From assembly GCA_040756875.1 (NCBI GenBank), contig JBFLYH010000001.1, positions 1,372,878-1,436,877 of the forward strand: a stretch of 64,000 nucleotides of DNA, read 5' to 3'. A program made the position numbers and the translations under genes. Below, piece by piece: positions 20,293 to 63,851 of the stretch. Within the stretch, counting starts at the first letter, position 1. Each line of letters opens with the position of its first letter. The notes under the pieces were generated by a model. It did no database searches. It saw only the letters and a program-made list of their open reading frames with translations, and was not told the DNA's origin. Origin of the DNA: a candidate division FCPU426 bacterium (GTDB lineage: Bacteria; Oederibacteriota; JAAXVQ01; JAUVAV01).

Positions 20293-22257
20293 TTACCAGT
20301 TGGTGGGCATGGCCTTGCGCGCCTTGTCCTTGTCCGCGCATTCGGCTTTCAAGGCCTGCAAGGTGGGGAAAAGCTTTTCCGCGGATGCAACCGTGGTGGC
20401 ATAGTCTTCGCTGCGCAGCAGCAACTTGATCTTGCCGAGCTCCTGCTTCAGTTCCGCCACTTGCTTGGGAAAATAGCGTTCTCCGTTCAGCGTATCAATG
20501 TCCAGCATCAACTTGACGGCCCGGCCATAAGCGCCGCGGGCGCGCTTGCGCAACCGTTGAACACGCGCGTCCAACGGAGCGGTCAGGGTAGCCTTTTCGG
20601 GGGCAGGCGTCACGGCCGGGACCGGCGCAGAATCCCGGGATTTTTCCGGCGCGGGCGCCGGCGGCGCTTTGACTTCTTCGGCTTCGGCTTTTTCCCTCCG
20701 GACGGCGCGGACCGCCAAACGCTCGGCTTCACGGCTAACCGCCTGGGAAATCGCCTGCACACGTTCGCTTTCCCCCACTGAAAGGTTTTCCTCGGCTAAG
20801 GCCAGTTGTTTCTGCAACGCCGAAAGTTCTTCGTCGAAATATTCCCGCACTCGCCGGTTTTTCCTGGCTGCCGAGAAGGCCGCCCGGGCGCGCTGCAAAC
20901 TCGAACCGGCCTCGCGCAAGGCTGCACGCCGGGCCACCAGCGCAGCCTCCCGTTCCTTGCGTTCCTGCTGTTGCTTTTGTTGTTCGGACAACACCTCGAG
21001 TTTCTTCTGCACGGACTGGAGCAACAGGGAGGCCTGGCTGTGGCGGGGGTCCAAGGTCTGCGCCTTGCGGTATTCCGAAGCGGCACTAAGCAGGTTACCC
21101 TCCTTTTCGAATTCCAACCCCTGGTCGATATGAATGCGGATTTCAGCCTGGCGTTTGAGGGTCTCATTCAGCGCCGTGATTTTTTGGCGCAGGGTTTGGT
21201 CATCCGGAACCATTTCCGCGGCTTCTTCCCACGCCTGCAACGCCGCCTGGGCGTCGCCTTCGCGGCGGTAGTCCTCGCCCTCCTCGATCAAGCGGTCGGC
21301 CAGCGCGCGGGCGTCATCCTCGGCGCTTTGGGAAGCTCCAAACGTGAATTGCAGGTTCAACAGATGCGTGACTCCGGCCTCGCTGAATCCCCCCAGAGGA
21401 ATGACGAGGGCGTATTCCACGCCCACGGACCACGCGGTTTGGGGCAGACGCAGGGTAAACCCTGCCGTGGCTTCGGAAAGCTCGCGGTCGCCCAGAGCCA
21501 GTCCCAAGCGGCTCGCGAAAATGCCGCGAACCCACCAGGCCTCCCCGCCCAGGGCCAGGCGATAGTGTCCGGACTGCGTCAGGGCTTCGAAGCCGGCCAG
21601 ATAATTTTCCTGCCTCCAGCCCGCACCGGCCCGCAACTGGAACGGGACGCGCGACTCGGCGCCGGACAACGAAAGGTTGGGCTGGTTCACGTTCGCCAAC
21701 GACAAACCAGCGGTGATTTCGTCCGTCAGATACATCAGCCCGCCCACGTCCACACCCACGGCCAGGGCCGACGTCCCGCCGTCGAAGTAGGGGTTCGCGG
21801 CAGTTGCAGCGGAATCCAGATAGCGCTGCTGCAGCAGTTTTAAAGCGATGCCGGCCATATAGCTTCCGGTTTCATCGAGCGCCAGGCCATATCCCAGGGC
21901 CCAAAGGTTTTCCTGATACATATCTTGTAAAGAGCGTTGAAACCACGAGGCGCCGATCGAACCGTAATCTTCCAGGGGTTGGATATACGATATCCTGCCC
22001 TCCGACAACACTCCGTCATTGAGTCCGGCCAGCAGACGCCCATAGCTGAGACCTGCCATCGGCGTCGGAATCTGCGCCATTCCCGCGGGGTTGGAAAAAA
22101 GCGCATCCGTGTCGTCAGCCAGGGCGCAGAACGCGCCAGCCATGCCCGCCGAACGGGCGCCGGGTTTTTCCAGCTCAAACCCCGCCTGCACGAGGCGCGG
22201 CCCGCAAAAAGCGGCCGTTCCGAACAGCAACAATGCCCAACCCCAGGAGGTTTTCAT
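20293..22257 (-). CDS. PorV/PorQ- or PorP/SprF-like outer-membrane beta-barrel fused to TPR and coiled-coil C-terminus
   Basis: Signal peptide; GARSAGMAGAFCALADD...NPAG; alternating beta strands to ~aa 305; TPR-like helices after that. Start overlaps the upstream stop (ATGA). Confidence 0.75.
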   Translation of the reverse strand: MKTSWGWALLLFGTAAFCGPRLVQAGFELEKPGARSAGMAGAFCALADDTDALFSNPAGMAQIPTPMAGLSYGRLLAGLNDGVLSEGRISYIQPLEDYGSIGASWFQRSLQDMYQENLWALGYGLALDETGSYMAGIALKLLQQRYLDSAATAANPYFDGGTSALAVGVDVGGLMYLTDEITAGLSLANVNQPNLSLSGAESRVPFQLRAGAGWRQENYLAGFEALTQSGHYRLALGGEAWWVRGIFASRLGLALGDRELSEATAGFTLRLPQTAWSVGVEYALVIPLGGFSEAGVTHLLNLQFTFGASQSAEDDARALADRLIEEGEDYRREGDAQAALQAWEEAAEMVPDDQTLRQKITALNETLKRQAEIRIHIDQGLEFEKEGNLLSAASEYRKAQTLDPRHSQASLLLQSVQKKLEVLSEQQKQQQERKEREAALVARRAALREAGSSLQRARAAFSAARKNRRVREYFDEELSALQKQLALAEENLSVGESERVQAISQAVSREAERLAVRAVRREKAEAEEVKAPPAPAPEKSRDSAPVPAVTPAPEKATLTAPLDARVQRLRKRARGAYGRAVKLMLDIDTLNGERYFPKQVAELKQELGKIKLLLRSEDYATTVASAEKLFPTLQALKAECADKDKARKAMPTNW

Positions 22258-23165
22258 CGCGCCAGCACCACTGCGGCCCGGTAGGTTCGATTCCCGGCCT
22301 GAATGACCAAGACATATATTCCGGCCGGCAAAGCTTTGCCCGCATCATCCCGGCCGTCCCAGCGCACGGTATAGTCCGGGATTTGGCCGCGCACCGTGCC
22401 TTCCGCGACACGCCTGCCGTTGAGCGAATAGACTTTGGCGTGTATCTCTCCCGCCGAAAGCTCGGATTGGAATACCGCCGCCAGTTCCCGGTTCAGGCTT
22501 CCATCCGGAGTGAATGTGCGCGTTAGCCATCTGACATTTCCCAACAAACCGGAAAAAGCAACCGTCGGCGGCGAGACATACGGAACCCGGGTGGGACTGA
22601 TGCTGGGCGTCGGCGAAATGGTGGGGGTGCGTGTAATCGTGAAAGTCGGCGTAACGGTGGCGGAAGGTGAAAAAGTCGGCGTGCGGCTGGGTGTGGGGCT
22701 GATGGTGCCGGTCGGGCTTTCCGTGGCCGTCTCGCTGATCGTGGGTGTAGCGGTCCGGGTGGCGCTCTCGGTGGGAGTAGTCGTGATGGAAAGCGTAGGG
22801 GAAATCGTCGGGGTTGGAGACTCGGTCGCAGTGTCCGTGGACGTCGGCGATTCGGTCAAAGTCGGGCTCAAGGTGGGAGTGGCTGAAAGAGTGGCTGTCC
22901 CGGTGATCGTAAACGTGCCTGTCGGCGTGGGAGAATCGGTCAGCGTCGGCGTGACAGTCGCGGTGGGTGTATCCGTCGGCGTGGAAGTCAGCGTGACAGT
23001 CTCGGTCGGGGTCGGCGAGTCCGTGGGTGTGTCAGTAAAAGTCGGCGTGTCCACGGCCGCCGCATACAAATTCGAAGCCGAAAAAACCGCCAAAGCACAC
23101 GCGACCATCACACTCAGCACACACCCTAATCGCAACATAGCCCCTCGCGTGAAGTGTTTTCGCAA
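22254..23165 (-). CDS. Secreted mucin-like Thr/Pro/Ser-rich protein with FlgD-Ig/type-B-like C-terminal domain
   Basis: Signal peptide (alternative ATG 23138), ~155 aa TPT-type repeats, then FTPDG...VYSLNGRRV...WDGRDDAGKALPAGIYV. Confidence 0.75.
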   Translation of the reverse strand: MRKHFTRGAMLRLGCVLSVMVACALAVFSASNLYAAAVDTPTFTDTPTDSPTPTETVTLTSTPTDTPTATVTPTLTDSPTPTGTFTITGTATLSATPTLSPTLTESPTSTDTATESPTPTISPTLSITTTPTESATRTATPTISETATESPTGTISPTPSRTPTFSPSATVTPTFTITRTPTISPTPSISPTRVPYVSPPTVAFSGLLGNVRWLTRTFTPDGSLNRELAAVFQSELSAGEIHAKVYSLNGRRVAEGTVRGQIPDYTVRWDGRDDAGKALPAGIYVLVIQAGNRTYRAAVVLAR

Positions 23166-23207
23166 GTATTGATCTTACGAATTAACCTCTTGGATTTCAA
23201 TGTTTTT

Positions 23208-23236
23208 TTAGACCGGACGCCAAGGGGAACCTTGCT
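23208..23236 (-). promoter_or_regulatory. ECF-type promoter candidate (weak -35)
   Basis: AGCAAG-N17-GTCTAA. Confidence 0.45.
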
Positions 23237-24477
23237 TACTTCACCAGCGCAACCTTTTTCTTTTCGCTTCGGACAATGCCACCCTGCTGGTTGGAAATCC
23301 TGATCGTCAGCAGATAAATCCCGGGCGCGGCTTCCGGCGCATTCCAGACGCAGGTCAGCATCTGTCCACTGCCGCCATCCCGGGACTCCAGGATGTGCGC
23401 CACCCTTTCCCCGCACATATTGTAAATATCCACTGCCACTTGAACCTGCCCCTCGGCCGGATAGGCGATCACCACCCGGTTACGGGCCGGATTGGGATAG
23501 ACGGTCGTTTCACTCAAACGCAGAAGCGGGGAGGGCGTGGCGGTCATCGTCGCCGTCACGGTGGGAGTCCCCGTATCCGCAGGGGTCGGCGTCACGGTGA
23601 ATGAAGGCGTGACCGTGGGCGTCGGTGATAGGGTCGGAGTGTCGGTCCAGGTGCCGGTGGCAGTGAGCGTCGGCGTCATCGTCAGCGTCGGCGAAGCTGT
23701 CGCGGTAAATGTCACGGTCAGGGTCGGGGTCGCGGTCGGCGTGGCAGTGGAAGTTTCAGTAGCCGTAGAAGTCGGCGTAACGGTCTGGGTTGGAGTCGAA
23801 GTCAGGGTGACGGTCGGGGTGAGGGTCGGCGTGGGCGTGGGAGGCGGCATGCGCACCGTGACGTAATCCACGACAAAGTAGGTGCTGCCAAAACCCTCGG
23901 CCGTCAGTTGCACGCGGAAAGTGTGCCCCGGGCCGATCCACCCCATGATCGAGGCATAATTAAGGATGAATGTCCCGGTTGTGCTTGTGCTGGAGACAAG
24001 GTCCCGATACTGCCAGGCCCCGTTGATTTCCTGGATGCCAACCTTCCATGTCATGGATGGCGAGAGCGAGGTCACGCGGATCTCAATGTGCGTGAAAACA
24101 CTGGTGTTTGGAGAAAGGAGCGGAGAAAGCACCTTGCCCCAGGTGCTGTCCGCTGTCCGCGTCACGGCCGCTTGCGAAACCAGGCAGGAGTAGGAAATAT
24201 GCGCATTGAACAGCGGATCGTCGCTTTCATCCTGCCAGCCTGCAGGCTGTGCACCCGGCGGTCCTGCATCAAAGTCGTCCCGCCAGTATTCATAAGTCGG
24301 CGTATTGGTCGGAGTGGGCGTGCTGGTGGAGGTGCAGGTGTGAGTTGATGTCGCCGTCAGGGTAGGTGTGTCTGTCGGGGAGGCGGCCCAAAGCCCCTCT
24401 CCTTGGGCCAACAAAACCAGCCACAGGCCGGCCGGTATCATAAGGGTGTGCTGCATTACCCTTTTCATGGGCATCAA
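23236..24477 (-). CDS. Secreted protein: one repeated module + Thr/Pro linkers + T9SS type-A-like CTD
   Basis: Signal peptide; WRDDF..QPAGWQDE...TRTADSTWGKVLSP module; YPNP...GERVA...PGIY...KKVALVK. Confidence 0.8.
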   Translation of the reverse strand: MMPMKRVMQHTLMIPAGLWLVLLAQGEGLWAASPTDTPTLTATSTHTCTSTSTPTPTNTPTYEYWRDDFDAGPPGAQPAGWQDESDDPLFNAHISYSCLVSQAAVTRTADSTWGKVLSPLLSPNTSVFTHIEIRVTSLSPSMTWKVGIQEINGAWQYRDLVSSTSTTGTFILNYASIMGWIGPGHTFRVQLTAEGFGSTYFVVDYVTVRMPPPTPTPTLTPTVTLTSTPTQTVTPTSTATETSTATPTATPTLTVTFTATASPTLTMTPTLTATGTWTDTPTLSPTPTVTPSFTVTPTPADTGTPTVTATMTATPSPLLRLSETTVYPNPARNRVVIAYPAEGQVQVAVDIYNMCGERVAHILESRDGGSGQMLTCVWNAPEAAPGIYLLTIRISNQQGGIVRSEKKKVALVK

Positions 24478-24661: not shown

Positions 24662-27600
24662 TTATCGGATAATAGCGACCTTTTTAGTTTCAGAAAAAAC
24701 GATTCTTCCGTTCGCGTCAAGTATCCTGATCCGAGCTAAATACACCCCTGGCGCCTGGTCCGAACAATTCCAGAGCAGGGTCATGGTCTGCCCCCGGCCA
24801 GCCTGTTGATTCTCGATCAAATGCGCCACGCGCTCTCCTGCCAACTGGTAAATATCAATGGTGACCGTATAATTGCCGCTGCGGGTATAAGCGAAGGTCG
24901 TCCGGTTACGGGCCGGGTTGGGATAGACCATGACCCGGCCTGCCTCCAGCCAGGGCGTAGGCGAAGGCGTGGCTGTGTTCAGCGTGCCGGCACCGATCGC
25001 GTTGTCAGGCGTGGGGCTGATGGTGAAGGTCGGAGTGGGCGTGGGCGGCAAGGCATAGATTCTCACTGAATCAGCCAGTAAATAACTGCCCGGGCTTCCT
25101 TCCAGCGTCAGTTGGATAAAAAAACTCTGGCTGCCGCTGCGACCCATGACCGTGGGAATGTCGAACACAAAACTTCCGGTCTGGGAGGTCAACGGCATGA
25201 GCGTCCAGAAGGACCACGCCCCGCCGTTTTCCTGGATGCCCGCGTTCCACACTGCGCCGGGCGAGAGGCCGAGCACCCGGAGTTCCAGCCGGTTATACTG
25301 GGAAACATTGCACGTTAAAGCCGGAGAAAGCACCTTGCCCCAGGTGTCGTCCGCCGTGCGGGTAAGCGCGGCGCAGGACGGCGAGGCAGAGTAGGCCAGA
25401 TGACAATCAAAGGCCGGGTTCTCGCTTTCATCGCTCCACCCCGGCGGTTGCACCCAAAACGTCCCGTTGAAGTCCTCCAGCCAGAAGGTGTCGGCCGGCG
25501 TCGGACTCGGGGTCGGCCGGTTGCCGTTCACCACGCTGACGTTTTCGACCAGCACCCAGGAGTTGTCCAACGAAAACTGGCTTTCCACACCGCCGACCGC
25601 CACGGTGAAATACTGGAGCCCACTTTGCAGGGAGAGCGGCAGGTAGTGGCGTAGATTGAATTTGAAAGCCCCCTTCACCGGGGAATCATAGTGCATGCGG
25701 ACCGAATACCCGCTGGGAGTGTTGCTTAAAAAGGCGTACCATTTTCCATAGAGGTCTTTGATATCGATGCGCAGGTCAGCCTCCTGGTCCATGTCAACGC
25801 TGAACGGGTAAATTTTTTCGATCGAGCCGTACCCGTAAGGCTCAGCCCCGCGATACAGGTCATAGATCCTGACCCCATTCTCCAGCGGCGCAAACTGGGC
25901 GCGATTATAAACCGGCGTCCACTGGGCGGTGACGCCCGGCAGCTGGGTGTTGAGCATGATCTGCTCGCCCCCCGCAGCCGGAGGCACCACGGTCCAGGGG
26001 TCGGACGGCCGGGGCACTGGTCCCGGGTTTTTCAGGTTGCTGCCTGTGTAAGCAGTGGCGTTCACCTCGGCCCCGGACCGCAGCAGTCCGGCCGCCGTGA
26101 ACAGCCCCATCAAATGCGGCGTCCCGTCTTGTTCGGTGTCGTTGAGCAGCCACACCAGCCCGCCCGCGAGGTCGGTCTGGTAGATGCTGTCCCAGACATG
26201 GGTGAAATAGTCGCTCACTTCCGCCGCCGGCGGGCTGAGGTTGAAATCCATCCCAAACTCTTCAAACAGTATGGGTTTAACCTGGCCTAATGATTGCATC
26301 AGGGTTCTGGCTTGCATGGCCGCGCCGATATAAGCGTCCCTGCGGTCGTAATAGTGAATGGTCACCACATCCACAGGCGCCAGATCCAGGCTGCGCAGGC
26401 TGTCCGGCCAGGCCGTAGCCGCTATCACCAAATGATTGGGATCCAGGCTCTGCATATACCCCGCCAGATCCTGGTGCCAATCCAAGGCGTACGGATGAGC
26501 TGTCAAATCACCGTTAACCAGCGCCACATAGACATCCAACTCGTTGGTGACGCCCCACCCTAAAATGCGGTCGTCGTCCCGGAACCGCTCCAGAATGAGG
26601 CGCACATGGTTCTTTTGGTCCGTTCGGGTCGCGGGAGAATAATTCCGCGTATAGGGGAAAAACGTGAATTCCACTTTCAACCCCGCTTTGTCCGCAAAGT
26701 ACAGGAATTGTTCCATGCGGGCCAACATCTCGGGCTTGACCGCGGCCCCGCCGAATTCATCATAATGGATGAACGTGCGGATGGTGTTGAATCCCAGGCC
26801 GGTCGCGCGGCTCAGCTCGGTTTCGATCATGGCTTGATCCCATTCCACCCACATCTTTTGCCAGCCGTGCGCCGAGGGATAGTAATTGGCCCCTTTGATT
26901 TTAACGATCGTTCCCTGCAACTCCAATTGTTCGGGGTCCGCGCCGCTGACCCGGACGAAATCACCGGCCGCCGCCTGGCGGCGGTTCCCGAATACCCGCA
27001 CACTCTCCACCGTGATTTGTTCGCCCGCCGCCCCTTCCACGGTAATTTGCACCACGATATCCTTTTCGCCGGACCAGCCGATGATCTGGGCGTAATCAAA
27101 CTCGAAAACCCCGTCCGTGGTCTGACTGGCGCATAAATCCCAGTAATTTGAAGTCCCATTTTCCAAAATGCCCACTTTCCACGAAACCGCGGAAGAAAAG
27201 CTGCTGACATTGATCTCCAGGCGGTTATAGGCGTTGACATCACAGCGAATGGGCGAGGACAACACCTTGCCCCAGACATCCTCCGCAGTGCGCACGATTG
27301 CAGCCGACGAAACGCCGCTGTAGTTTATCTCGGCGTTGAAAGTCGCATCATCCGTTTCATCGAACCAATTGGAGGGCTGGAGGCCTGCGGTGCCGGTAAA
27401 ATCCTCATGCCATATGTCCGCCGTCAGGGCGCTGGGCGTGGGGGTACGGGTCGGCGTTGAAGTCGGCCCGTCGGGCGTGAAGCTTGGGGTGGGCGTGGGG
27501 CTGGCCGTCGGAGTGGGTGGAGCCGAACGCACGCTCACATAATCCGCCACCAGATACTTCCCCACACCTCCCTCCACGGTCAATTGAACGTAAAAATCCT

Positions 27601-28162
27601 TCGTGCCGCTCCATCCCATGGCTGAAGCATAGGGATATATGAAAGTTCCGATCTGGCTCTGGCTCGCGCACAGGCTTTGGTACGTCCAGGAACCCCCATA
27701 TTCCTGTATACCGATCTTCCAGGTGGTGGTCGGTGAAAGCCCGGCGATCTTGACTTCTACATAACCAAACTGGCTGGTATCGCAATGCAAAAGCGGCGAA
27801 AAAACCTTGCCCCAGACATCTTCGGCGGTCCTGGTTACCGCGGCCAGGGACGGTTGAAAGGAATAAGCTATTTCTGCATTGTAGGTATTGACATCCGTTT
27901 CGTCCTGCCATCCGGCCGGTTGTAGTCCGGGTGTACCTCCGTTAAAATCATCCCGCCAGAATTCAATCACCGGTGTGGCGGTCGGGGAGGGCGTGAGGGT
28001 AAACGTTACGGTTGCGGTGGGAGAAGGTGTCTGGGTATCCGTATCTGTCGGAGTAAACGTAGGGGAGGCTGCCATGACGGTGTTGAAAATGCAAAAAAAC
28101 ATCACTATGTTAAAAGTAATGATTCCTGCCCACGTTCTCTGCTTCCCAGGCATGACAGCCAT
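24662..28162 (-). CDS. Secreted clan GH-A (GH5-like) glycoside hydrolase with 3 repeated modules and T9SS-like CTD
   Basis: KGANYYP, LGFNTIRTF, WGVTNELD (acid/base), TIHYY, KPILFEEFG (nucleophile); YPNP...KKVAIIR. Confidence 0.8.
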   Translation of the reverse strand: MAVMPGKQRTWAGIITFNIVMFFCIFNTVMAASPTFTPTDTDTQTPSPTATVTFTLTPSPTATPVIEFWRDDFNGGTPGLQPAGWQDETDVNTYNAEIAYSFQPSLAAVTRTAEDVWGKVFSPLLHCDTSQFGYVEVKIAGLSPTTTWKIGIQEYGGSWTYQSLCASQSQIGTFIYPYASAMGWSGTKDFYVQLTVEGGVGKYLVADYVSVRSAPPTPTASPTPTPSFTPDGPTSTPTRTPTPSALTADIWHEDFTGTAGLQPSNWFDETDDATFNAEINYSGVSSAAIVRTAEDVWGKVLSSPIRCDVNAYNRLEINVSSFSSAVSWKVGILENGTSNYWDLCASQTTDGVFEFDYAQIIGWSGEKDIVVQITVEGAAGEQITVESVRVFGNRRQAAAGDFVRVSGADPEQLELQGTIVKIKGANYYPSAHGWQKMWVEWDQAMIETELSRATGLGFNTIRTFIHYDEFGGAAVKPEMLARMEQFLYFADKAGLKVEFTFFPYTRNYSPATRTDQKNHVRLILERFRDDDRILGWGVTNELDVYVALVNGDLTAHPYALDWHQDLAGYMQSLDPNHLVIAATAWPDSLRSLDLAPVDVVTIHYYDRRDAYIGAAMQARTLMQSLGQVKPILFEEFGMDFNLSPPAAEVSDYFTHVWDSIYQTDLAGGLVWLLNDTEQDGTPHLMGLFTAAGLLRSGAEVNATAYTGSNLKNPGPVPRPSDPWTVVPPAAGGEQIMLNTQLPGVTAQWTPVYNRAQFAPLENGVRIYDLYRGAEPYGYGSIEKIYPFSVDMDQEADLRIDIKDLYGKWYAFLSNTPSGYSVRMHYDSPVKGAFKFNLRHYLPLSLQSGLQYFTVAVGGVESQFSLDNSWVLVENVSVVNGNRPTPSPTPADTFWLEDFNGTFWVQPPGWSDESENPAFDCHLAYSASPSCAALTRTADDTWGKVLSPALTCNVSQYNRLELRVLGLSPGAVWNAGIQENGGAWSFWTLMPLTSQTGSFVFDIPTVMGRSGSQSFFIQLTLEGSPGSYLLADSVRIYALPPTPTPTFTISPTPDNAIGAGTLNTATPSPTPWLEAGRVMVYPNPARNRTTFAYTRSGNYTVTIDIYQLAGERVAHLIENQQAGRGQTMTLLWNCSDQAPGVYLARIRILDANGRIVFSETKKVAIIR

Positions 28163-55420: not shown

Positions 55421-58400
55421 TTATCGAATCAAGGCCACCTTCTTCTTCAATTTCATTACCTCGTTGCCACTGGCACCGGTTATTTCAATGCGGCAAATAT
55501 AAATGCCCGGCGCCACGCCCTCGGCTTGCCAAGTCGTAACCAGGGTCTGCCCCTGGCCGCCGTCCCGGAATTCCGTGATCGCGGCTACCCGTTCCCCGGT
55601 CAGCCGGTAGATGTCAATCTTCACCTTGCCCGCACCTGCAAGTGTATAGGCGAAATGCACATTCCCGCGCGAGGGGTTGGGATAAGTCATGACCTGGTTT
55701 TTGCCCAGCCAGGGGGTGGGCGTGGAAGTCGGCGTCAGGGTCGGGGTTGATGTCGGTGTCAGGGATGGAATGGTTATTGGCGTCGAAGTGGGAGTGGGAG
55801 TAGGAGTGAATACAGAGGTAACGGACGGCACCGGCGTCAGGGGAGCCATGGTACTGCCCATGACACTGCCCGCTTGGCCGACCCATAGATAGTCGACCTC
55901 AAACCATTTGCCGGCCGCGCCCTCCACGACCATCTCCAGATTGAACTCCTGGACGCCCGCCCACCCGGTTATCGCGGAATAATTGTAAGTATATTCCCCG
56001 GTGCTTGACGAGCTGTTCTGCAGGACGGCAAATTCCGTCTCGCTGTCTTTCTTGCGAATGATCAATTTCCATGCGGTGTCGGCCGAAATCCGGTCCACCT
56101 TGATTCCCACGATCGGATACTCACTGACGTTCGCTGTGAGCAAGGGAGACTGGACTTTTCCCCAGCCGATGGCATCCGCCGTGCGGGTAATACAAGCCAC
56201 GGAATAGGCGGAGGAAAAAGCGACGTGCGCATTAAAGCCCGTGTCGTCGTTTTCGTCCTTCCACTCTTGCGGCTGCACCCATAATGTGCCTTTGAAATGG
56301 TCGGCCCAGGCCATGCCGGCCGGCAAGGTCGGTTCCGGCGGCCGGGTCCCGTTCACGACGCTGATGTTTTCCAGCCAGGCGGCGGCATAGTCGGTCGGCG
56401 AGGGCAGCACCCCGTTGGCCGCCCCCACGATCAGCCTGAAACTCCGGACGCCATTTTGCAGGCTTTCGGGGAGATAATACTTGAGGTTGTAAATATATTC
56501 GCCCGGCAGGCCTGCGTCGTATTCCATCCGGACGATGGGATCGCTGGTCGAGCTGCCCAATTGCAAATAGGTATACCATACCTGCTGAACCTTCCGGACG
56601 TTCATCCTCACATCCGCTTCCTGGTCCATATCCACGGTAAACGGCTGGCTGGCGGCAATGCTGCCCCAAAAATCCTGGGTCGTCGATCCGGCAACATTGA
56701 GTTTGACTTCCGTGCCGTCTATCACGCGGCTGGTCGAACCGTCGCGGACCGGCCACTGGGCGATGATGTCCGGCACTTGGTAGTTGAGCAGGATCTGTTC
56801 GGCGCCTGCGGCTGCCGGCATCACGGCCAAGGGCGCGGCGGGCCTGGACACCTGGTTAAGCGGATTGAACGTCGTGCCTTGATAGGCGTTCAACACCGCT
56901 CCCACGCCGTCGCGCATGGCCCCGGCCGTGGTAAAACAACCCTTGTTTTGGGTGACAAAATCGTTCAAAGTCCAAATCATGGTGCCGGCGATGTCCGCGG
57001 AATATGCCTGCGAATAAACACGGTTGAAATAGGCGGCGATTTGTTCCGCAGAATACCCGGCATTATAATCCAACCCGTGTTCTTCGAACAGAATCGGCCG
57101 GGTTACGCCTTTTTTCGCCATAAGCTGTCTGGCCTGCATGACCATGCCCAGCTCCGGTTTGTCATCGCCGAGCGAATGGAGGGCAAAAACATCTATATTC
57201 GTCAGGTCCAGCGCCCGGATGGCAAAAGGCCGGCTGGAGGCAGCGACCAGAAGATGATTCGGGTCCTGGGCCTTCATATGTTCGGCCATGTTGGCATGCC
57301 ACGCATACGCTTCGTCTTTTTTGCTTTGCAAAGCGAAATGCAGCGCATAAAGATCGAGTTCGCTGGTTACCCCCCAGGCAAAGATGCGGTCGTCCTCCTT
57401 GAAACGTTCAAGCACGGCGGTCAAATGATCCCTCATTCCCTGCCACTTCGAGACCGAATAATCCCGGGCATAGGGGAAGAACGTGAGTTCGACCCGCAGG
57501 CCCAGGCGGTCGGCAAGGTATAAAAAGTCCTCCATACGCGCCAGCATTTCCGGCCTCACGCTGGCCCCGCCGAATTCTTCGTAGTGCACGAAAAATCTCA
57601 CCGCGTTGAACCCAAGTTGGGCAACACGCGCGAGTTCTTGTTCGACCCGTTCCGCATCCCATTGGCTCCACACTTCGTGATTCGTCTCATCGTAGGTCGC
57701 AGGATAATAATTGACCCCTTTGATTTTAACCACCGTGCCATTCAGTTCCAGCTGTTCGGGTTCGGTCGCGCTGCGATGGATGAAACTGACGGCAGCCGGC
57801 CTGCGCACTCCGAATATTTTCACGTAATCAATGGCCAGGTTGCTTCCGGCGATCCCCTGGACCTTAATCTGAATCTGAAGCCGTTTCTCTCCTGACCAGC
57901 CGGCGATCGCCGCATAATTGAAATAATAGCGGCCCGGGGATGCCTGCCACGGGCAGAGATCGTAATCATTGCCTTCCACCTCATGAATGCCGACTTTCCA
58001 GGCGGTGCCAGCGGAAACGCCGTCTACTTTGATCTCCAAATGATCATACTGGCTGGCATTGGTCAGGAACGGCAGGGACACGGTTTTCCCTTCCGCGTTT
58101 TCCAGCAGAGTCAACGTCGCGGTCGTGCTCCCGCTTCCGTCGCCGACGAACTCGGAATCCAGGCCGGAATTCTGGCTTTCGTCAAGCCAGCCAAAAGGTT
58201 GGCCGGAAATGTTCCGGAAATGGTCAAACCAGAAATCCGCGATCGGGGTGACCGAAACCGTGGCTGTCATGGTCATGGTCGGCGTCGGGGAAACGGTCGG
58301 CGTCTGCGTGGCTGTAAGGGTTTGCGTAGGCGTGGGGCTGATGGTGCAGGAGGCGGAAAGCGTCGAGGTCACTGTGGGTGTCGGCGTCACCGTGGGCGTC

Positions 58401-59908
58401 GGAGTCAGCGGAACGCTCTGACGCAGGCTCACGCTGTCAAAAATGGCCGAATGGTTCGTCCCCTCGGTAAACAAATCGACGCCGAACGTGACGATTCCGC
58501 TCCAGCCCATGACGCTGCGCAGATCCCAGGCATAGGTTCCGGCCGCCGAGATTCCGCTCTGGATGTCGTACCCTCCTGTCCCCCGCGCTACGCCGACCTT
58601 GACGGTCCCGGTGGCGACTTGATCGATTTTGACTTCCAGAAAAGGATACTGATCAATATCCGCCGTTATGTTTTGGCCGGTCATGATCTGCGCATAATTG
58701 GCCTGGCCGTCATTGGTTTCGATCACATAGCCGTCGCGCGTGTCGTACCAGGCAATGGGCCTGGTTAGGAGCCACCCTTGGGGGGGATTGCCGGGCGAAG
58801 ACGGAGGGATGTCATCCGAATAGTTGAACTCGTCCTGCCAGGCCACTGTCGCCGAAACAGTCTGAAGCGGATTGGTGCTGATTCTCACGAAGTCCAACTT
58901 CACCTGGCAGTTTGCGCCATCCGAAATCAACTCCACACCCAGGTATTTGATTCCGCTCCACGCGCCGCTGGTGGCCGCGGGAATATCGAAAGTATACAGC
59001 CCGGGCCGGGTAATCGACTGGGCGCAGGTAAACGATTGCCACCCCCCCGAGGTGGTGAACACATTGACTCTGAACGTTCCGTTCGTTACGCTGTCCACTT
59101 TGACTTCCAGCGTGGCATACACATTCAGATTCACGTCCTGCGAAAAGGACTGCACCTTCCCCCACGAAGCCCCGGGGACTGTTTGCAACAAAGCCCTCGA
59201 GATTTGGCTGTCATAGGCGATTTCGGCGTTGAAGCTGCCGTTATTGGTTTCATCGTACCATCCCGGGCATTGCATCCCGGGGGACGAAGGAGGGACATCG
59301 TCGCTATAGACGAATTCTTCCCTCCACTTGTACAGGGCATAGGCGGGTTTGCGGGTTATTTTAATGTAATCCAATTCAATCCATTTTCCGGAAGCGCCCT
59401 CGACCACGACTTCGAACTTGAAAGCATGCGTGCCTGTCCAGCCAGCCACGGCGGCATAATCGTAGCAAAACGTTCCGCCGGTGTTCTTGGTGGCCTGGAT
59501 CACCCAGGAAGGAGAACCCGGGGTGCTTTCGCGCAGAATCAGTTTCCAGCCCGTGCTCGACGACAGCCGGTTGACTTTGATTTCCACCAGGGGATACTCA
59601 TCGACATTGACCACCCGCTGCGGGGTCGACACCTTCCCCCATACGTCCTGGGCGGTCCGCGTCACAGCCGCCACGGAGGATTGATACGAGTAGGCGATTT
59701 CCGCGTTGAAGTCGGCGGAATTGGTTTCGTCGATCCAGCCGGCAGGCTGCGCCCCCGGCGCGCCTCCGTCGAAATGATTGATCCAAATGTCCGGCGTGGG
59801 GGTAGGCGTCGGGGTCGCCGCCGCCCATCCCGGCAATGTAAACAACAGCCATCCGACGAACAACCACCTGGTTTGCGACCCTGTCTGAATCCCGCTTTGG
59901 TTTTTCAT
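55421..59908 (-). CDS. Secreted clan GH-A (GH5-like) glycoside hydrolase with 5 repeated modules and T9SS-like CTD
   Basis: KGVNYYP, LGFNAVRFF, WGVTSELD, RPILFEEHG; paralog of 24662..28162; YPNP...KKVALIR. Start placed at ATG 59908 behind GGAGGGGG. Confidence 0.8.
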   Translation of the reverse strand: MKNQSGIQTGSQTRWLFVGWLLFTLPGWAAATPTPTPTPDIWINHFDGGAPGAQPAGWIDETNSADFNAEIAYSYQSSVAAVTRTAQDVWGKVSTPQRVVNVDEYPLVEIKVNRLSSSTGWKLILRESTPGSPSWVIQATKNTGGTFCYDYAAVAGWTGTHAFKFEVVVEGASGKWIELDYIKITRKPAYALYKWREEFVYSDDVPPSSPGMQCPGWYDETNNGSFNAEIAYDSQISRALLQTVPGASWGKVQSFSQDVNLNVYATLEVKVDSVTNGTFRVNVFTTSGGWQSFTCAQSITRPGLYTFDIPAATSGAWSGIKYLGVELISDGANCQVKLDFVRISTNPLQTVSATVAWQDEFNYSDDIPPSSPGNPPQGWLLTRPIAWYDTRDGYVIETNDGQANYAQIMTGQNITADIDQYPFLEVKIDQVATGTVKVGVARGTGGYDIQSGISAAGTYAWDLRSVMGWSGIVTFGVDLFTEGTNHSAIFDSVSLRQSVPLTPTPTVTPTPTVTSTLSASCTISPTPTQTLTATQTPTVSPTPTMTMTATVSVTPIADFWFDHFRNISGQPFGWLDESQNSGLDSEFVGDGSGSTTATLTLLENAEGKTVSLPFLTNASQYDHLEIKVDGVSAGTAWKVGIHEVEGNDYDLCPWQASPGRYYFNYAAIAGWSGEKRLQIQIKVQGIAGSNLAIDYVKIFGVRRPAAVSFIHRSATEPEQLELNGTVVKIKGVNYYPATYDETNHEVWSQWDAERVEQELARVAQLGFNAVRFFVHYEEFGGASVRPEMLARMEDFLYLADRLGLRVELTFFPYARDYSVSKWQGMRDHLTAVLERFKEDDRIFAWGVTSELDLYALHFALQSKKDEAYAWHANMAEHMKAQDPNHLLVAASSRPFAIRALDLTNIDVFALHSLGDDKPELGMVMQARQLMAKKGVTRPILFEEHGLDYNAGYSAEQIAAYFNRVYSQAYSADIAGTMIWTLNDFVTQNKGCFTTAGAMRDGVGAVLNAYQGTTFNPLNQVSRPAAPLAVMPAAAGAEQILLNYQVPDIIAQWPVRDGSTSRVIDGTEVKLNVAGSTTQDFWGSIAASQPFTVDMDQEADVRMNVRKVQQVWYTYLQLGSSTSDPIVRMEYDAGLPGEYIYNLKYYLPESLQNGVRSFRLIVGAANGVLPSPTDYAAAWLENISVVNGTRPPEPTLPAGMAWADHFKGTLWVQPQEWKDENDDTGFNAHVAFSSAYSVACITRTADAIGWGKVQSPLLTANVSEYPIVGIKVDRISADTAWKLIIRKKDSETEFAVLQNSSSSTGEYTYNYSAITGWAGVQEFNLEMVVEGAAGKWFEVDYLWVGQAGSVMGSTMAPLTPVPSVTSVFTPTPTPTSTPITIPSLTPTSTPTLTPTSTPTPWLGKNQVMTYPNPSRGNVHFAYTLAGAGKVKIDIYRLTGERVAAITEFRDGGQGQTLVTTWQAEGVAPGIYICRIEITGASGNEVMKLKKKVALIR

Positions 59909-59995
59909 TTTCCCCCTCCGGCGATTGGATTTCTCCAGTGAAACCATCATCCGTCCGCTTGCGTTTCACCGTTCCTTTCAGCGGACGGATCAGAA

Positions 59996-62878
59996 TCATT
60001 TGTATCCATATACTCTTACATAATCCAGCAGGATAAACTGCCCGGGCTCCCCCTCCATGTTGATCTGCACGATGAATTCCCTGACCCCGCGCCAGCCGGT
60101 CTTGGCCCGTAGGTCCGCCGAATAGGTCAGGGCGTCGGCCGAGCCGGCGACAAGGTCCCAGTAATTGTCCGTGCCCGGCTCGCGCAGGGCGATGTTCCAG
60201 CGCGTGCCCGGCGAGTTGCGGACCACTTTGGCTTCCACGTAGTTGTAGCGGTCGACATCGAGGCGGATCAGGCGGCTGCGGATGTTCCCCCAGGTGCTCT
60301 CCGCGGTGCGCGTGACCGCGGCGAAGCCGGGTTCGCACGCATACGCGATCTCGGCATTGAGGTCCGCCTGGTCGGTTTCATCCTGCCATTGCGAGGGTTG
60401 CCGGCCCGGCGTGCCGTTGAAGTCGTCCTGCCATCCGTTCATGCAGGGCGGCGTGACGGTGGGCGTGCCGGTCGGGCGCTGCCGCGGTTCGGCCAGGCCG
60501 GGCACAAAGGCGCCCATCCGGTTGTTCACGATGACGGCCCGGGAGGAAAACCCGGCGGTTGTGATGAACATCATCCAATATCCCGGTCCGAGATCAGGGG
60601 GAAACCTCAGGCGCAGCGTGTCCTTGGTCTGGGACCACGCCAGGGGATAAAGCCGGGAAGTCAGGTCCAGCATTTGCCCGGAAGAACTGTACACGCCCAT
60701 GCTGCCGCTGTCCAGGGCGAGGAGCCAAGCCCGGGGATAATTCACAGCCGAACTGCCCCACCCCTGGCCGCAGCCTGCCCCCCAGGGGCCGCGAAATCCC
60801 TGCCCGATCACGATGCCGATGGCCCCGGGTTTGGCCACATCGGACCAGGTCTTGATCCGCGGGCCTGGCCCGGATTCAGGCGGCAGGGCTTCGCCGCGAT
60901 AAGAACAGGCTTCCAGGCTGGCCAGATATTCCAGCCGGTCCTCGCCGCCGGTCAGCAGCACGCGGCCGTCCGCCAGCAGCGTGGCCGTATGCTCCCGGCG
61001 CTGGCCCGCCAGCGGGGCTGAAAGGTGGAAATGGTCCGTGGCCGGATGGTACCATTCTGTTTCCGCGGCGCCGCCCGCCAGCAGGACGTCGCCGCCGGGC
61101 AGCAGGGTGGCGGTGTGCCCGCTGCGGGCCCGGTTGAGGCGGCCGGCGGAAACGAACCGGTTGGTCGCGGGATCATAGCGTTCCGCCCCGGCTAAAAGGC
61201 TTTCCTGATTGGCGCCGCCGGCGATCAAAACCTGGCCGTTGGCCAGGCGTGTGGCCGTGTGCATGGCTCTGGGTTCGGCCATGGCGCCGGCGGGCGAAAA
61301 ACGCCGGGTCAGCGGATCGTACAATTCGGCGCTGGCCAGGTAACGCGCGCCGTTGTACCCTCCGGCGATCAGCACTTTGCCATTGGCCAGCAAGGTTGCG
61401 GAATGCTTTTCCCTGGGTTCAGCCATGCGGCCCGCGGAGATGAAGCTTCTGCTTTCAGGATCATAGAGCTCGGCGCTTGCGAGATGCTTCTGGTTGAATC
61501 CCCCGGCCAGCAGCACCTGGCCGTTGTTCAGGAGTGTGGCCGTTTGCTTTTCCCGCCGGGCCAGCATCCTGCCCGTCATTTCGAAGCGCCGCGTGTCCGG
61601 ATGGTAAAGCTCGGCGCTGTCATAATACTCGCCGTCGCCGTAGCCGCCGGCCAGCAGCACCTCGCCTCCGGGCAGGAGGGTCGCGGAATGGCAGTGCCGC
61701 GGAACCAGCATCATGCCCGCCGCCAGGATGGCATTGGCCTGGGGGGCGAAGCGTTCGCACTGGGCGAGATAACGTCCGTTATAACCGCCCGCGATCAGAA
61801 CCTGGCCGTCCGGCAGCAGGGTGGCGGTGTGGGTGTGACGGGAAAGGCTCATGGATCCCAGCGCGGTCCAGGCGCCGGTTCCGGGCAGGTAGAGTTCCGG
61901 CCGCAGCCCGCTGCCGCCGCCGAAGACGAAGACTTTGCCGTCTGGCAGCAGCGTGGCGCTGTGGAAGGCGCGGGCCGAAGCCATGGGCGCCTGCGTCAGC
62001 CAGCGGTTGCCGGCAGGATCAAACCTCCATGCCTGAGGCCCGGACAGCAGCATCACCGTGCCGTCAGGCAGCAGCGTGGCGGTCAAACCGGGCCGGAGGG
62101 CGTCCAGCTGGCCCACAACCTGCGCGCGCCGCTCCTGGGGGAAATACCGCTCCACTGCCGCGGGCCCGCCGCCGGCCAGCAAGACGCTTCCGTCCGCCAG
62201 CAGCACGGCCGCCGGGTCGATGCGGTCGCCCGCGAGCCGGCCGGCGGACTGAAAGTCATTGCGCCCGATGCGGTAGATTTCCACGGCCGGGTTCCCGCCG
62301 CCGGCCACCAGCACCTGCCGCTCGTCCAACAGGACGGCCGCATGCCCGGCGCGAGCGAATTGAAGGTTTCCGGCTTTTCGGAATTTTCCGTTTCGCGGGT
62401 CGTACAGTTCGGCCGCCTGCGGGCCGCCGCCGGCCAGCAACACCTGGCCGGTCGGCAGCAGCGTGGCCGTGTGCCCTGCCCGCGCAAAATGCATGCTGCC
62501 CGTGGAGGTAAACTCGCCGGTTGCCGGCTGGTAAATCTCAGCCGAGGATTGCGGCTTTCCGAACGCGTCCTCGCCGCCCGCGATCAGAACCGTGCCGTCG
62601 GGCAGCAGCGTGGCCGTGTGCCGGGCCCGCCGGTTGGTCATGTATCCGGCGACGCGGAAAGTCCCGTTTTGCGGATCGAACAGCCAGGCGCCGTAGCCCG
62701 GCCGGCCCTGGCTGAAGCCTCCGGTCAGCAGCACTTTTCCGTTGGGAAGCAGGGTCGCGGCATGCCGCGCAGTGTCCGTGGTCGCTTCCACCGGATAGCA
62801 CCACTCCCCGGCAGCGGCTGATTTGAGGTAGGCGAATATCAACAGGGCGGATAGCAGGATGCGAGCGGTAGGTCTCAT
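59996..62878 (-). CDS. Kelch-repeat (tandem beta-propeller) secreted protein ending in one repeated module, no CTD
   Basis: About 14 R..HTATLL.(D/N)G.VL.AGG...AE.YDP repeats; C-terminal WQDDFNGTPGRQPSQWQDETD...TRTAESTWG module. Confidence 0.88.
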   Translation of the reverse strand: MRPTARILLSALLIFAYLKSAAAGEWCYPVEATTDTARHAATLLPNGKVLLTGGFSQGRPGYGAWLFDPQNGTFRVAGYMTNRRARHTATLLPDGTVLIAGGEDAFGKPQSSAEIYQPATGEFTSTGSMHFARAGHTATLLPTGQVLLAGGGPQAAELYDPRNGKFRKAGNLQFARAGHAAVLLDERQVLVAGGGNPAVEIYRIGRNDFQSAGRLAGDRIDPAAVLLADGSVLLAGGGPAAVERYFPQERRAQVVGQLDALRPGLTATLLPDGTVMLLSGPQAWRFDPAGNRWLTQAPMASARAFHSATLLPDGKVFVFGGGSGLRPELYLPGTGAWTALGSMSLSRHTHTATLLPDGQVLIAGGYNGRYLAQCERFAPQANAILAAGMMLVPRHCHSATLLPGGEVLLAGGYGDGEYYDSAELYHPDTRRFEMTGRMLARREKQTATLLNNGQVLLAGGFNQKHLASAELYDPESRSFISAGRMAEPREKHSATLLANGKVLIAGGYNGARYLASAELYDPLTRRFSPAGAMAEPRAMHTATRLANGQVLIAGGANQESLLAGAERYDPATNRFVSAGRLNRARSGHTATLLPGGDVLLAGGAAETEWYHPATDHFHLSAPLAGQRREHTATLLADGRVLLTGGEDRLEYLASLEACSYRGEALPPESGPGPRIKTWSDVAKPGAIGIVIGQGFRGPWGAGCGQGWGSSAVNYPRAWLLALDSGSMGVYSSSGQMLDLTSRLYPLAWSQTKDTLRLRFPPDLGPGYWMMFITTAGFSSRAVIVNNRMGAFVPGLAEPRQRPTGTPTVTPPCMNGWQDDFNGTPGRQPSQWQDETDQADLNAEIAYACEPGFAAVTRTAESTWGNIRSRLIRLDVDRYNYVEAKVVRNSPGTRWNIALREPGTDNYWDLVAGSADALTYSADLRAKTGWRGVREFIVQINMEGEPGQFILLDYVRVYGYK

Positions 62879-63056: not shown

Positions 63057-63674
63057 TCAGGCGGTCACCAGGCCCACGGCATCTTCCCCCAGCCACGGGC
63101 GGCTGATTTTCGACAGTAAATGTTTGCCCCGCAAGAGGCGCACGCCCAGGATTGCAGCCGGAATGTTCAAACGCCTGGCTGCTTCGCTGTAAGAGTGGCG
63201 CTTCCAATAAATAAGGTAGATCACGCGCCGGTATTTCTTCGGCAGCGTCTTCAAGGCCTGGCGCAGGCCGCTGATCTGCTGTTCCAGCACCAGCTGCTCC
63301 TCCAGGTTGTTTCCCGGTGCGGTCAAAACCAGGTTCTCGGGCAGACCGGCCTGAGGCAGGCGCCGCCGCTTGGTCAGATGTGTCTTGCAGGTGTTGGCCG
63401 TTATGCGGAACAACCAGGTCCACAGCCCCGATTGGCCGCGAAAATTAAGAATCTTTTTCTCGCCCAAGACTTTGGAAAAAACTTCCTGTGCCGCGTCCCG
63501 GGCATCGTGCAGATCGCGGAAATAACGCAGGCAGGTATTCAGCACTTTGCGATAGTATCGGTCTGCCAGCTGATCCGCCGCGCTTGCCACGTTATTACGG
63601 ATTAGCTGGATGAGCTCCATATCCGTTAAATCGATCGTATCTTTCTTTTCAGTACAAATAACAGGCATGGGCAT
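63057..63674 (-). CDS. ECF sigma factor (sigma70 group 4, RpoE-like)
   Basis: Region 2 DARDAAQEVF...FRGQSGLWTWLFRITAN; region 4 LP..YR.VI.L.Y....SY.E.A..L.IP; AGGAG RBS. Confidence 0.88.
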   Translation of the reverse strand: MPMPVICTEKKDTIDLTDMELIQLIRNNVASAADQLADRYYRKVLNTCLRYFRDLHDARDAAQEVFSKVLGEKKILNFRGQSGLWTWLFRITANTCKTHLTKRRRLPQAGLPENLVLTAPGNNLEEQLVLEQQISGLRQALKTLPKKYRRVIYLIYWKRHSYSEAARRLNIPAAILGVRLLRGKHLLSKISRPWLGEDAVGLVTA

Positions 63675-63704
63675 TCGCTCCTATATTAATGATTCACAAT
63701 AATA

Positions 63705-63720
63705 AGCAAACGCCATGCCA
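63705..63720 (-). promoter_or_regulatory. sigma54 (-24/-12) promoter for the ECF gene
   Basis: TGGCATGGCGTTTGCT versus consensus TGGCACG-N4-TTGC(A/T); exact GG-N10-GC; ends ~30 nt upstream of the start codon. Confidence 0.78.
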
Positions 63721-63833
63721 CTTCTAGGCAGTTAGTAAAAAACTCTTTTCCTTATAAATAAGCTGTTTCTGCATTTATTCAAAAGAAGAGACAAACGAAA
63801 CCGGAAGGTTTTTATTCCAGCCGGAACAAATAA

Positions 63834-63851
63834 CTTCCACTTCAGTGGAAG
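63834..63851. promoter_or_regulatory. Palindrome, candidate upstream activator sequence for a sigma54 enhancer-binding protein
   Basis: CTTCCACT-TC-AGTGGAAG perfect 8-bp inverted repeat ~115-130 bp upstream of the -24 box. Confidence 0.4.

Follow-up and report, generated by a model that had tools for sequence, protein, structure and literature searches.

In Bacteroidota's type IX secretion system (T9SS), the outer-membrane core of which is known from Flavobacterium johnsoniae (6H3I, 8GL6), substrates bind the extracellular loops of their carrier inside the translocon, and the release of the carrier-substrate complex is an energy-requiring step for which motor energy is needed, as stated in parts of PMC10994853. 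The systems with type B C-terminal domains (CTDs), namely SprB-SprF and PorP-PorE-PG1035, follow a related logic, in which, according to parts of PMC9143113, a cargo-specific barrel acts as a non-covalent anchor independently of PorU. The T9SS, its CTD proteins, and SprA have been described in sections of a 2025 review and of a 2025 research paper as specific to the FCB superphylum. Here, we analysed a stretch of 64,000 nucleotides (the window) from an uncultured candidate division FCPU426 bacterium, corresponding to C1:1372878-1436877 of the host assembly (3.22 Mb, seven contigs, completeness score 100%). The window carries an array of 13 genes, which we named A to M, at window positions 20293-63674, all on the minus strand and transcribed in the order M, L, K, J, I, H, G, F, E, D, C, B, A. 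An earlier reading made from the letters of this stretch (the sequence-only reading) had proposed a system for sorting or display that is related to the T9SS and has CTDs specific to the lineage, PorV-like barrels, and a reduced export route, encoded by cargo and barrel genes on a single strand. All the genes it named were found on the minus strand, and family scores, fold comparison, and a complex model support the proposed system.

Our analysis points to a T9SS-like route lacking the known motor and sortase, in which an SprA-like channel would work together with cognate PorV-family barrels serving as carriers or anchors of the CTD proteins, and we put the probability of this explanation at roughly 0.7. 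The array is part of a system found throughout the genome and the phylum, in a lineage of the Goldbacteria type. We rejected a special status of the locus within its genome because it is one of about 30 places at which cargo and barrel genes occur together.

C-terminal domains of the cargo proteins

Seven proteins of the array (C, D, E, F, H, J, and K) end in a common domain of about 95 residues, and their last 95 residues are 46-63% identical to those of H. The motifs YPNP, GERVA, APG.Y, and KKVA are invariant or nearly so across the seven CTDs, and six of them are led in by TP(W/F)(L/V), with SPLL in C; both the shared domain and its lead-in had been noticed correctly in the sequence-only reading. 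Scoring with the hidden Markov model (HMM) TIGR04183 for the T9SS type A sorting domain (cut-off 23 bits), by which the T9SS-like nature of the CTDs was to be judged, was passed by six of the seven with 25.8-31.0 bits. The Pfam model Por_Secre_tail (cut-off 27 bits) was passed by C, D, and F, and the other four reached 23.1-25.1 bits. The eighth protein, to which a variant CTD had been ascribed, is B (22254-23165, minus strand), a Thr/Pro-rich protein of 303 aa whose stop codon overlaps the start of A by 4 nt. It carries such a variant of the FlgD_ig type (27.4 bits, cut-off 27), scores 18.8 bits on TIGR04183, below the cut-off, and is gathered by the iterated CTD profile. The profile built from the window CTDs gives its top score to H.

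A full-length search of the host genome with the window CTD profile retrieved 65 proteins. The match stops at most 10 residues from the C-terminus in 50 of them, and for most of the remaining 15 the last 12 residues close with a basic-hydrophobic tail of similar kind. Iteration on C-terminal pieces of 110 aa raised the count to 97 proteins, the strict C-terminal placement of which has to be read with the scope of the iterated search, which covered only the last 110 residues.

Barrels of the PorV/PorQ family

Three barrel genes are interspersed among the cargo genes. Barrels G (40818-41768, minus strand, 316 aa) and I (50720-51664, minus strand, 314 aa, 21 nt after J) are 58% identical to each other and pass the PorV/PorQ-family model NF033709 (cut-off 90 bits) with 164.1 and 150.8 bits. 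Barrel A (20293-22257, minus strand, 654 aa) combines a divergent PorV-family barrel at residues ~8-306 with a TPR/coiled-coil extension (TPR_2, 25.7 bits); it stays below the NF033709 cut-off with 57.8 bits and reaches 185.9 bits against the barrel profile of the host genome itself. All three can thus be called PorV-like, as had been proposed, with A recognized through the host profile only. No window barrel reaches the equivalog cut-offs of PorV (NF033710) or PorQ (NF033711), the scores of G and I on these models being 73.7 bits for a cut-off of 250 and 90.4 bits for a cut-off of 220. The only match to the PorP/SprF model TIGR03519 (cut-off 90.55 bits) was A with 19.5 bits, and G and I were not listed.

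A profile of 13 host barrels retrieved PorV of F. johnsoniae (6h3i_F) with an E-value of 5e-35 and the FadL-type protein TbuX with 0.0027. The AlphaFold2 (AF2) model of G (pLDDT 83) had its best Foldseek matches in the PorV chains 8gl6_F (E 5e-15) and 6h3i_F (E 2e-13), with a TM-score of 0.72 for both, and matched TodX/FadL at E ~1e-8. Because PorV is nearer in both sequence and fold, we rejected the identity of the barrels as FadL-type transporters, which the sequence-only reading had named among the findings that would refute its own proposal.

The host genome contains many more such barrels: NF033709 gave 44 matches, in 33 open reading frames (ORFs) above the cut-off, and the host's own profile counted 39 PorV-family barrels, of which 25 exceed 400 aa. 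When 20 long barrels were scanned, ten had a C-terminal OmpA domain, five had TPR repeats (one below the Pfam cut-off), six a FlgD_ig-type domain, two fn3, one a phosphonate-binding-protein domain, and one nothing. If the OmpA and TPR tails face the periplasm, as the usual position of barrel termini suggests, the barrels would look like fixed anchors rather than free shuttles. The phosphonate-type periplasmic binding-protein domain is fused to a PorV-family barrel of 728 aa encoded at C2:864166-866352, and the gene before it encodes two copies of the new domain described below.

Pairing of barrels with C-terminal domains

A CTD gene lies immediately upstream and on the same strand of 30 of the 39 barrel genes, and 33 barrels are adjacent to a CTD gene. 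When 97 genes were picked at random in each of 1000 draws, the barrels with one of them on either side numbered 3.1 on average and 10 at most, and the adjacency is thus far beyond chance. In half of the 30 pairs (15), the two genes share exactly 4 nt, and in 25 the gap is no larger than 36 nt. The identity matrices of barrels and CTDs in the 30 pairs are correlated, with a Mantel Spearman r of 0.33 that was not reached in any of 2000 permutations, and the nearest barrel and the nearest CTD indicate the same pair in 11 of the 30 cases. One locus, at C1:1002060-1030323, encodes a CTD protein of 7689 aa followed by a barrel of 322 aa, an NHL-repeat protein of 312 aa, and a protein of 1067 aa with LysM and a short SprA-like stretch (TIGR04189, 30.9 bits).

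The interface between CTD and barrel, for which the sequence-only reading had looked to a complex model, was predicted for barrel G and the CTD of H. With a 13-sequence alignment for G and a 7-sequence alignment for the CTD, the CTD docks on one face of the barrel with an ipSAE of 0.85 (median of three runs), against 0.00 for the best of three controls. Among solved complexes, 116 of 157 attain such a score, as do 2 of 215 mismatched pairs, in counts that hold only roughly because our own alignments were used. The runs have at least 87% of their contacts in common, and the pLDDT of the partner is at least 84. The CTD makes contact through its conserved YPNP, GERVA, APGIY, and KKVAIIK segments with every second turn of the barrel, and from the usual barrel topology these turns would be the extracellular loops. 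A solved complex of like kind is 8gl6, which contains PorV with the RemA CTD.

SprA, motor, and sortase

The host genome has one SprA/Sov-like gene, an ORF of 2111 aa at C1:863629-869964, which scores 224.2 bits on TIGR04189 (cut-off 200). The sequence-only reading had seen no sprA, porKLMN, or porU gene and had suspected a reduced route. Its statement on SprA does not extend beyond the window, given this homologue elsewhere in the genome, but GldK, GldL, GldM, GldN, and a true PorU were not found in the genome either. The four models for GldK/L/M/N (TIGR03525, TIGR03513, TIGR03517, and TIGR03523) gave zero matches in the host genome, and neither did the FGE-sulfatase domain that represents the PorK fold (PF03781) occur in it, with the control being positive in three genomes. 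GldM and GldL were likewise detected in none of eight distinct genomes of the lineage, with two of three Bacteroidota-labelled controls positive.

The sole C25 peptidase of the host genome is a protein of 1188 aa with a CTD of its own (Peptidase_C25, 167 bits). It scores 84.3 bits on the PorU model NF033707, the cut-off of which is 420 bits, and no barrel gene follows it. Seven loci of other phyla were tested, and in six of them the PorV gene has PorU as its upstream ORF, with 608-1203 bits, the score in a Caldithrix metagenome-assembled genome (MAG) being 608 bits. We dropped a PorU-like sortase in the host genome on the grounds of these scores and because just 6 of the 61 sampled phylum genomes have a C25 peptidase. 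At five loci in MAG records with the labels Puniceispirillum, Alphaproteobacteria, or Thiohalospira, a PorV-family gene is preceded by a CTD-bearing ORF of 886-1350 aa, which was PorU in the two of these loci that were tested (646 and 677 bits); the labels may be binning or naming errors.

We compared the surroundings of SprA in 16 loci, from the host genome and 15 other genomes. In 13 of the 16, a second SprA-related ORF comes after the SprA-like gene, with the host genome lacking an adjacent copy, and in 10 the SprA-like gene stands beside LptF/G genes. The genes lpxI, lpxA, lpxC-fabZ, and lpxD lie near it in seven loci and a heptosyltransferase gene in four others, and further conserved neighbours are a LytTR two-component pair and ComF-like genes. 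A motor-like gene conserved beside SprA was found in none of these comparisons across the 16 loci. The second SprA-related ORF is shorter (~700-1600 aa), carries fn3 in the one that was scanned, and often lies among lpt/lpx genes for outer-membrane biogenesis.

Distribution in the phylum

Barrel G has its highest identity (72%) in a MAG that appears to be of the same genus as the host, followed by two MAGs labelled Candidatus Goldiibacteriota (68-69%) and one labelled Candidatus Firestonebacteria (65%); a Goldiibacteriota-labelled MAG appears to be of the host's order. The nearest named relatives are thus Goldiibacteriota, which agrees with the earlier view that the genome is not of Bacteroidota. 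The candidate phylum FCPU426, which the sequence-only reading had named, fits as well, as a part of PMC7031533 equates the FCPU426 16S cluster with Goldbacteria. The NCBI taxonomy lists Goldiibacteriota among the unplaced candidate phyla (Bacteria incertae sedis), outside named groups such as FCB.

In a sample of 61 genomes of the phylum, from 18 families and 46 genera, PorV-family genes occur in all 61, usually with at least 25 per genome in a count that stopped near 29 for each genome. SprA-like ORFs of ~1750-2330 aa occur in 58 of the 61 and in 43 of the 45 high-quality genomes, and the three genomes without a match include one that is less than 90% complete. Peptidase_C25 was found in the six genomes mentioned above. 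In the open-access literature that was searched, we found no link between the T9SS and Goldbacteria, Firestonebacteria, or FCPU426 and nothing that joins PorV paralogs and SprA across phyla; the texts on Elusimicrobia that were examined mention no T9SS outside FCB.

Cargo proteins and a new CBM-like domain

All twelve proteins A-L start with a hydrophobic segment resembling a signal peptide, as read by eye and unscored. Eight of them share a domain of ~160 aa, which occurs in 38 copies in 14 host proteins, 29 of these copies being in the window (H 7, J 6, K 5, F 4, D 3, E 2, C 1, and L 1). No Pfam family covers this domain in the window proteins or in 33 scanned relatives. Its AF2 model (pLDDT 88) is a beta-jelly roll, matched by the carbohydrate-binding module (CBM) families CBM86, CBM4, CBM22, CBM27, CBM61, and CBM11 in Foldseek, where the matches have E-values of 8e-5 to 2e-3 and those to CBMs TM-scores of 0.42-0.56; MAM domains and ciliary jelly-roll proteins are structural matches of equal rank. 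The protein-atlas neighbours of the domain are CBM-like clusters, and sequence matches of its profile in the PDB are weak (best E 0.02). Against 1.84 billion representatives, the profile found 536 clusters at E<=1e-3, of which 124 have E<=1e-30. Among the best 150 relatives, 54 end in a CTD by our own profile, and of the 33 that were scanned, 9 have Por_Secre_tail, 11 have no Pfam family, and the rest have propellers or lectin-type modules. The domain is probably CBM-like, with sugar binding predicted from its model. It resembles known jelly-roll CBM families in fold and in its occurrence in glycoside hydrolase (GH)-like and propeller proteins, and by sequence lies outside the described CBM families, with no Pfam match over the regions concerned.

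The cargo proteins vary widely in length and make-up. Following the order of transcription, L (59996-62878, minus strand) is a secreted Kelch beta-propeller protein of 960 aa matching Kelch families, with its single copy of the new domain at its end (residues 802-960). No CTD was detected in it with either the window CTD profile or the iterated CTD profile in genome-wide searches. The cargo protein K (55421-59950, minus strand, 1509 aa) has a central GH5-like TIM-barrel region among its new domains and its CTD, and J (51686-55273, minus strand, 1195 aa) has six tandem copies and a CTD. Within J, at 53633-55180 (minus strand), copy 2 shares 85% identity with copy 1 and 88% with copy 3, a sign of tandem duplication in recent times; the orthologue of J in the same-genus genome has five copies. 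Both H (41926-50580, minus strand, 2884 aa) and F (31035-40526, minus strand, 3163 aa) have an N-terminal GH-like region besides new domains and a CTD. The N-terminus of F has a weak beta-galactosidase match (E 9e-4), and the protein also contains an LVIVD propeller, an FG-GAP propeller, and a 40-aa Thr/Pro repeat. The DNA of this repeat, at 32017-32711 (minus strand), is a 120-nt tandem repeat of 5.8 copies with 92% matches that encodes a 40-aa Thr/Pro/Glu/Asp linker unit. F is 2110 aa long in the same-genus genome. FG-GAP repeats are combined with two new domains and a CTD in E (28339-30822, minus strand, 827 aa). In D (24662-28162, minus strand, 1166 aa), three new domains and a CTD accompany a GH5-like central region, which matches, in PDB sequences, a DUF5060 protein (E 2e-7) as well as GH5 endo-mannanases and to which the central region of K is alike in sequence. 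The shortest of the seven is C (23236-24477, minus strand, 413 aa), with one new domain and a CTD. Convergent with A, at 18507-20150 on the plus strand, lies a gene whose 547-aa product has PD40 beta-propeller repeats and a linker of Pro/Thr/Ala/Lys repeats (Pfam PT).

Taken together, the cargo proteins appear to be glycan-directed surface enzymes and binders, and the new domain family may mark glycan-binding surface enzymes of Goldbacteria-type bacteria. One member of Goldbacteria has been tied to cellulose degradation in a part of PMC7031533. The array is syntenic in the same-genus genome, where the orthologues of A-K are 50-83% identical (A 74%, B 50%, C 63%, D 79%, E 66%, F 83%, G 72%, H 62%, I 81%, J 53%, and K 71%).

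Transcription units and regulators

The first gene of the array, M (63057-63674, minus strand), encodes a sigma-70 factor of 205 aa of the extracytoplasmic function (ECF) type (TIGR02937, 79.5 bits for a cut-off of 42.9; Sigma70_r2 and Sigma70_r4_2), and no anti-sigma ORF lies between M and L. Terminator-like hairpins on the minus strand follow I (50666-50696, 14 pairs and a T run), G (40758-40790, 13 pairs, 9 of them GC), and E (28287-28321, 15 pairs, 10 of them GC). These strong hairpins rule out the single operon headed by the sigma gene that had been supposed earlier, and the array is predicted to form at least four transcription units, L-K-J-I, H-G, F-E, and D-C-B-A.

A heptamer, AGTCTAA, stands on the minus strand before J (55316-55322), H (50623-50629), G (41812-41818), F (40717-40723), and D (28244-28250), and the same-genus genome has it ahead of its own versions of D, H, and J as well. 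Of its 49 occurrences in the host genome, 23 are intergenic and 17 are oriented toward a start codon within 200 nt. Eight of these 17 precede CTD or barrel genes, which make up 5.7% of all genes. The heptamer is a candidate for a shared promoter or operator element. We did not call it an ECF -10 box because it has no fixed -35 partner, with distances to AAC-like motifs varying from ~10 to 24 nt.

A sigma-54-type promoter match (TGGCAT-N5-TTGCT, 63705-63720, minus strand) lies 30 nt before the start codon of M. It is the only one in the window, compared with an expected number of 0.11, and one or more turned up in 10 of 100 shuffles. Directly upstream of M, past the end of the window at C1:1436788-1439538, are genes for a histidine kinase of 454 aa and an NtrC-type sigma-54 activator of 456 aa. 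This arrangement suggests a cascade from the kinase through the activator and sigma-54 to the ECF sigma factor M. Sigma-54 promoters were rejected as a general feature: there are eight strict matches in the host genome, three of them before genes and one before M, and none in the scanned 20-kb stretch of the same-genus genome that holds its regulator-sigma pair. Another sigma-54-type match in the host genome precedes, by two genes, a gene call of 12,520 aa that starts at C1 ~371,000. The same-genus genome has no orthologue of L or M at the head of its array; between its orthologues of H and G it carries instead an activator (40% identical) and an ECF sigma factor (37% identical). In both genomes, a regulator module of this type thus appears to accompany the array, and the link of M to the cargo genes is indirect only.

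A possible pathway and what weighs against it

In the pathway that we favour, the cargo proteins would cross the inner membrane by Sec, as their signal-like N-terminal segments suggest, and the outer membrane through the SprA-like channel, as its homology and co-conservation in the phylum suggest. The CTD would be captured by a cognate PorV-like barrel, on the barrel's outward side, in keeping with the complex model, co-divergence, and gene adjacency. The barrel might then remain as a non-covalent anchor with no hand-over to a sortase, because there is no PorU orthologue, C25 peptidases occur in so few genomes, and many barrels have OmpA/TPR extensions. These extensions would tie the barrels to the wall if both barrel ends face the periplasm. 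Barrels G and I probably serve the seven cargo proteins of one CTD subtype, and A would serve B. The cargo would be Sec-exported multidomain surface proteins with clan GH-A-like TIM barrels, beta-propellers, CBM-like jelly-rolls, and Thr/Pro linkers.

A stronger version would be a minimal type IX-like pathway made only of the SprA-like channel and many PorV-like barrels, each with its own CTD subtype and serving as a wall-tethered non-covalent anchor, with no PorLM motor, PorKN ring, or PorU. We advance this version tentatively and would wager slightly against it. If it were true, the core of SprA, PorV, and CTD would be older and more widely spread than the Bacteroidota machine around it, and the energy-requiring release step would be bypassed or driven otherwise.

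Several observations weigh against the favoured pathway. Secretion, surface exposure, and binding are predicted, and the whole explanation is built on sequence comparison and modelling. The CTD scores on public models are marginal (23-31 bits), four of the seven fall below the Pfam cut-off, and H is not listed for TIGR04183 at E<=0.01. The genome counts come from crude longest-ORF gene calls (2388 genes of at least 80 aa). Only 35 of the 97 CTD genes adjoin a barrel and 62 do not, 9 of the 39 barrels have no CTD gene upstream, and in the window 5 of the 8 CTD cargo genes have no barrel after them. With these counts, a one-to-one dedication of barrels to cargo does not hold; of the dedicated barrels inferred in the sequence-only reading, the adjacency, co-divergence, and docking remain and the strict pairing is lost. 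The correlation between barrels and CTDs can reflect a joint history, as it does not separate co-duplication from co-adaptation. The pass of the complex model may stem from likeness to 8gl6 and is no proof that this copy binds. The GldM and GldL models were also negative in one Bacteroidota MAG and in five PorV-bearing MAGs, of KSB1, Caldithrix, Marinimicrobia, Zixibacteria, and Poribacteria, and because they missed these five, the negative results for GldL and GldM (and GldN) are weak outside Bacteroidota. The C25 protein of the host, which has a CTD of its own, may yet serve as a sortase.

The last two points lead to the idea that the host has a canonical, complete T9SS, in which PorKLMN and PorU have diverged beyond the reach of the models and the locus is a routine group of cargo genes. 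The host does have SprA, PorV-family barrels, and CTDs, together with a C25 peptidase that bears a CTD, the GldL and GldM models evidently have a poor reach, and in the KSB1, Zixibacteria, and Poribacteria MAGs the PorV gene is also not preceded by a PorU-sized CTD ORF. We nevertheless regard this as unlikely. The FGE-sulfatase domain is missing from a genome scored as 100% complete, with a positive control; the PorU model that reaches the Caldithrix MAG (608 bits) gives 84 bits in the host; within the phylum, C25 occurs in 6 of 61 genomes, compared with 61 of 61 for the barrels and 58 of 61 for SprA; and no motor-like gene is conserved beside SprA in the 16 loci. Genomes of about 3 Mb in this phylum, moreover, have 25-60 PorV-family genes each, and we know of no canonical T9SS with such a number.

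Could the pairs of cargo and barrel be display modules in themselves, independent of SprA, with BAM assembling the barrel around or beside the CTD in the manner of some two-gene autotransporter-like systems? The tight translational coupling, with 4-nt overlaps in 15 of 30 pairs, and the co-divergence of barrel and CTD would suit such modules, as would the ratio of 39 barrels to one SprA and the 3 of 61 genomes with barrels in which no SprA-like gene was found. SprA is nonetheless present in the other 58, and one of the three misses is less than 90% complete. From its fold, a barrel of PorV size would not pass folded proteins of 800-3000 aa, and the 62 of 97 CTD proteins without a neighbouring barrel imply that a shared route is needed. 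In the known system, PorV takes cargo from SprA, according to a part of PMC10994853. We consider modules of this kind quite improbable. The barrels might also be FadL-like uptake channels for the products of the hydrolases, with the C-terminal domains being ordinary Ig-like modules, since PorV has a FadL-type fold, TodX/FadL are the next structural matches, and the cargo looks glycan-directed. This seems to us a very slim chance given the difference between PorV and TbuX in the profile search (E 5e-35 vs 0.0027), the strictly C-terminal position of the CTD in 97 proteins (in the last 110 residues searched), a complex model that passes with controls at 0.00, and barrels that also follow non-enzymatic cargo, such as the 7689-aa protein.

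If the favoured T9SS-like route is right, the outer-membrane core would be universal in a candidate phylum that NCBI lists among the unplaced ones, with many cargo-linked carriers and no recognisable motor or sortase. It would separate the parts of the T9SS that are essential for crossing the outer membrane from the additions of Bacteroidota and would pose the question of the energy supply. It would also offer a simple genomic rule by which surface proteins and the anchors that hold them could be located in uncultured phyla, namely a CTD gene with a PorV-like gene after it.

Comparison with described systems

The likeness of the host system to the outer-membrane core of the Bacteroidota T9SS lies in the SprA homologue, the homology of the barrels to PorV, the matches of the CTDs to the type A model, and the CTD modelled on one face of the barrel, which would be the side of the extracellular loops by usual topology. 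The differences are equally apparent. The host has 39 PorV-family genes, most of them right after a cargo gene, compared with one or two in Bacteroidota. Its barrels are often fused to OmpA or TPR, G and I lie below the equivalog cut-offs of both PorV and PorQ, and no GldKLMN and no PorU orthologue were found in its genome. A source for the motor-driven release step described in a part of PMC10994853 is not visible in the host.

The type B CTD systems might share the logic of a cargo-specific barrel used as a non-covalent, PorU-independent anchor. In the PorP-PorE system, PorE gives the link to the wall, as stated in part of PMC9143113, and the fused OmpA/TPR extension may do so in the host, where the wall-binding part would be fused instead of being a separate protein. 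The barrels of the type B systems are of the PorP/SprF kind, whereas those of the host are of the PorV/PorQ family, and the host CTDs match the type A model and not that of type B. The host gene pairs also resemble the porU-porV pair (sub-complexes PorU-PorV and PorZ-PorQ), in which a gene for a CTD-bearing protein likewise precedes a PorV-family barrel gene, but the upstream partners in the host are diverse cargo proteins rather than the sortase.

In summary, what is known is the outer-membrane half of the T9SS, namely SprA, the PorV family, and a type A-like CTD, to which the host variant is predicted to belong while falling outside by PorKLMN and PorU. What is new compared with the described systems are the counts across genome and phylum, an SprA above the cut-off with the sortase missing, the co-divergence of barrels and CTDs, the complex model, the OmpA/TPR fusions, and the cargo domain.

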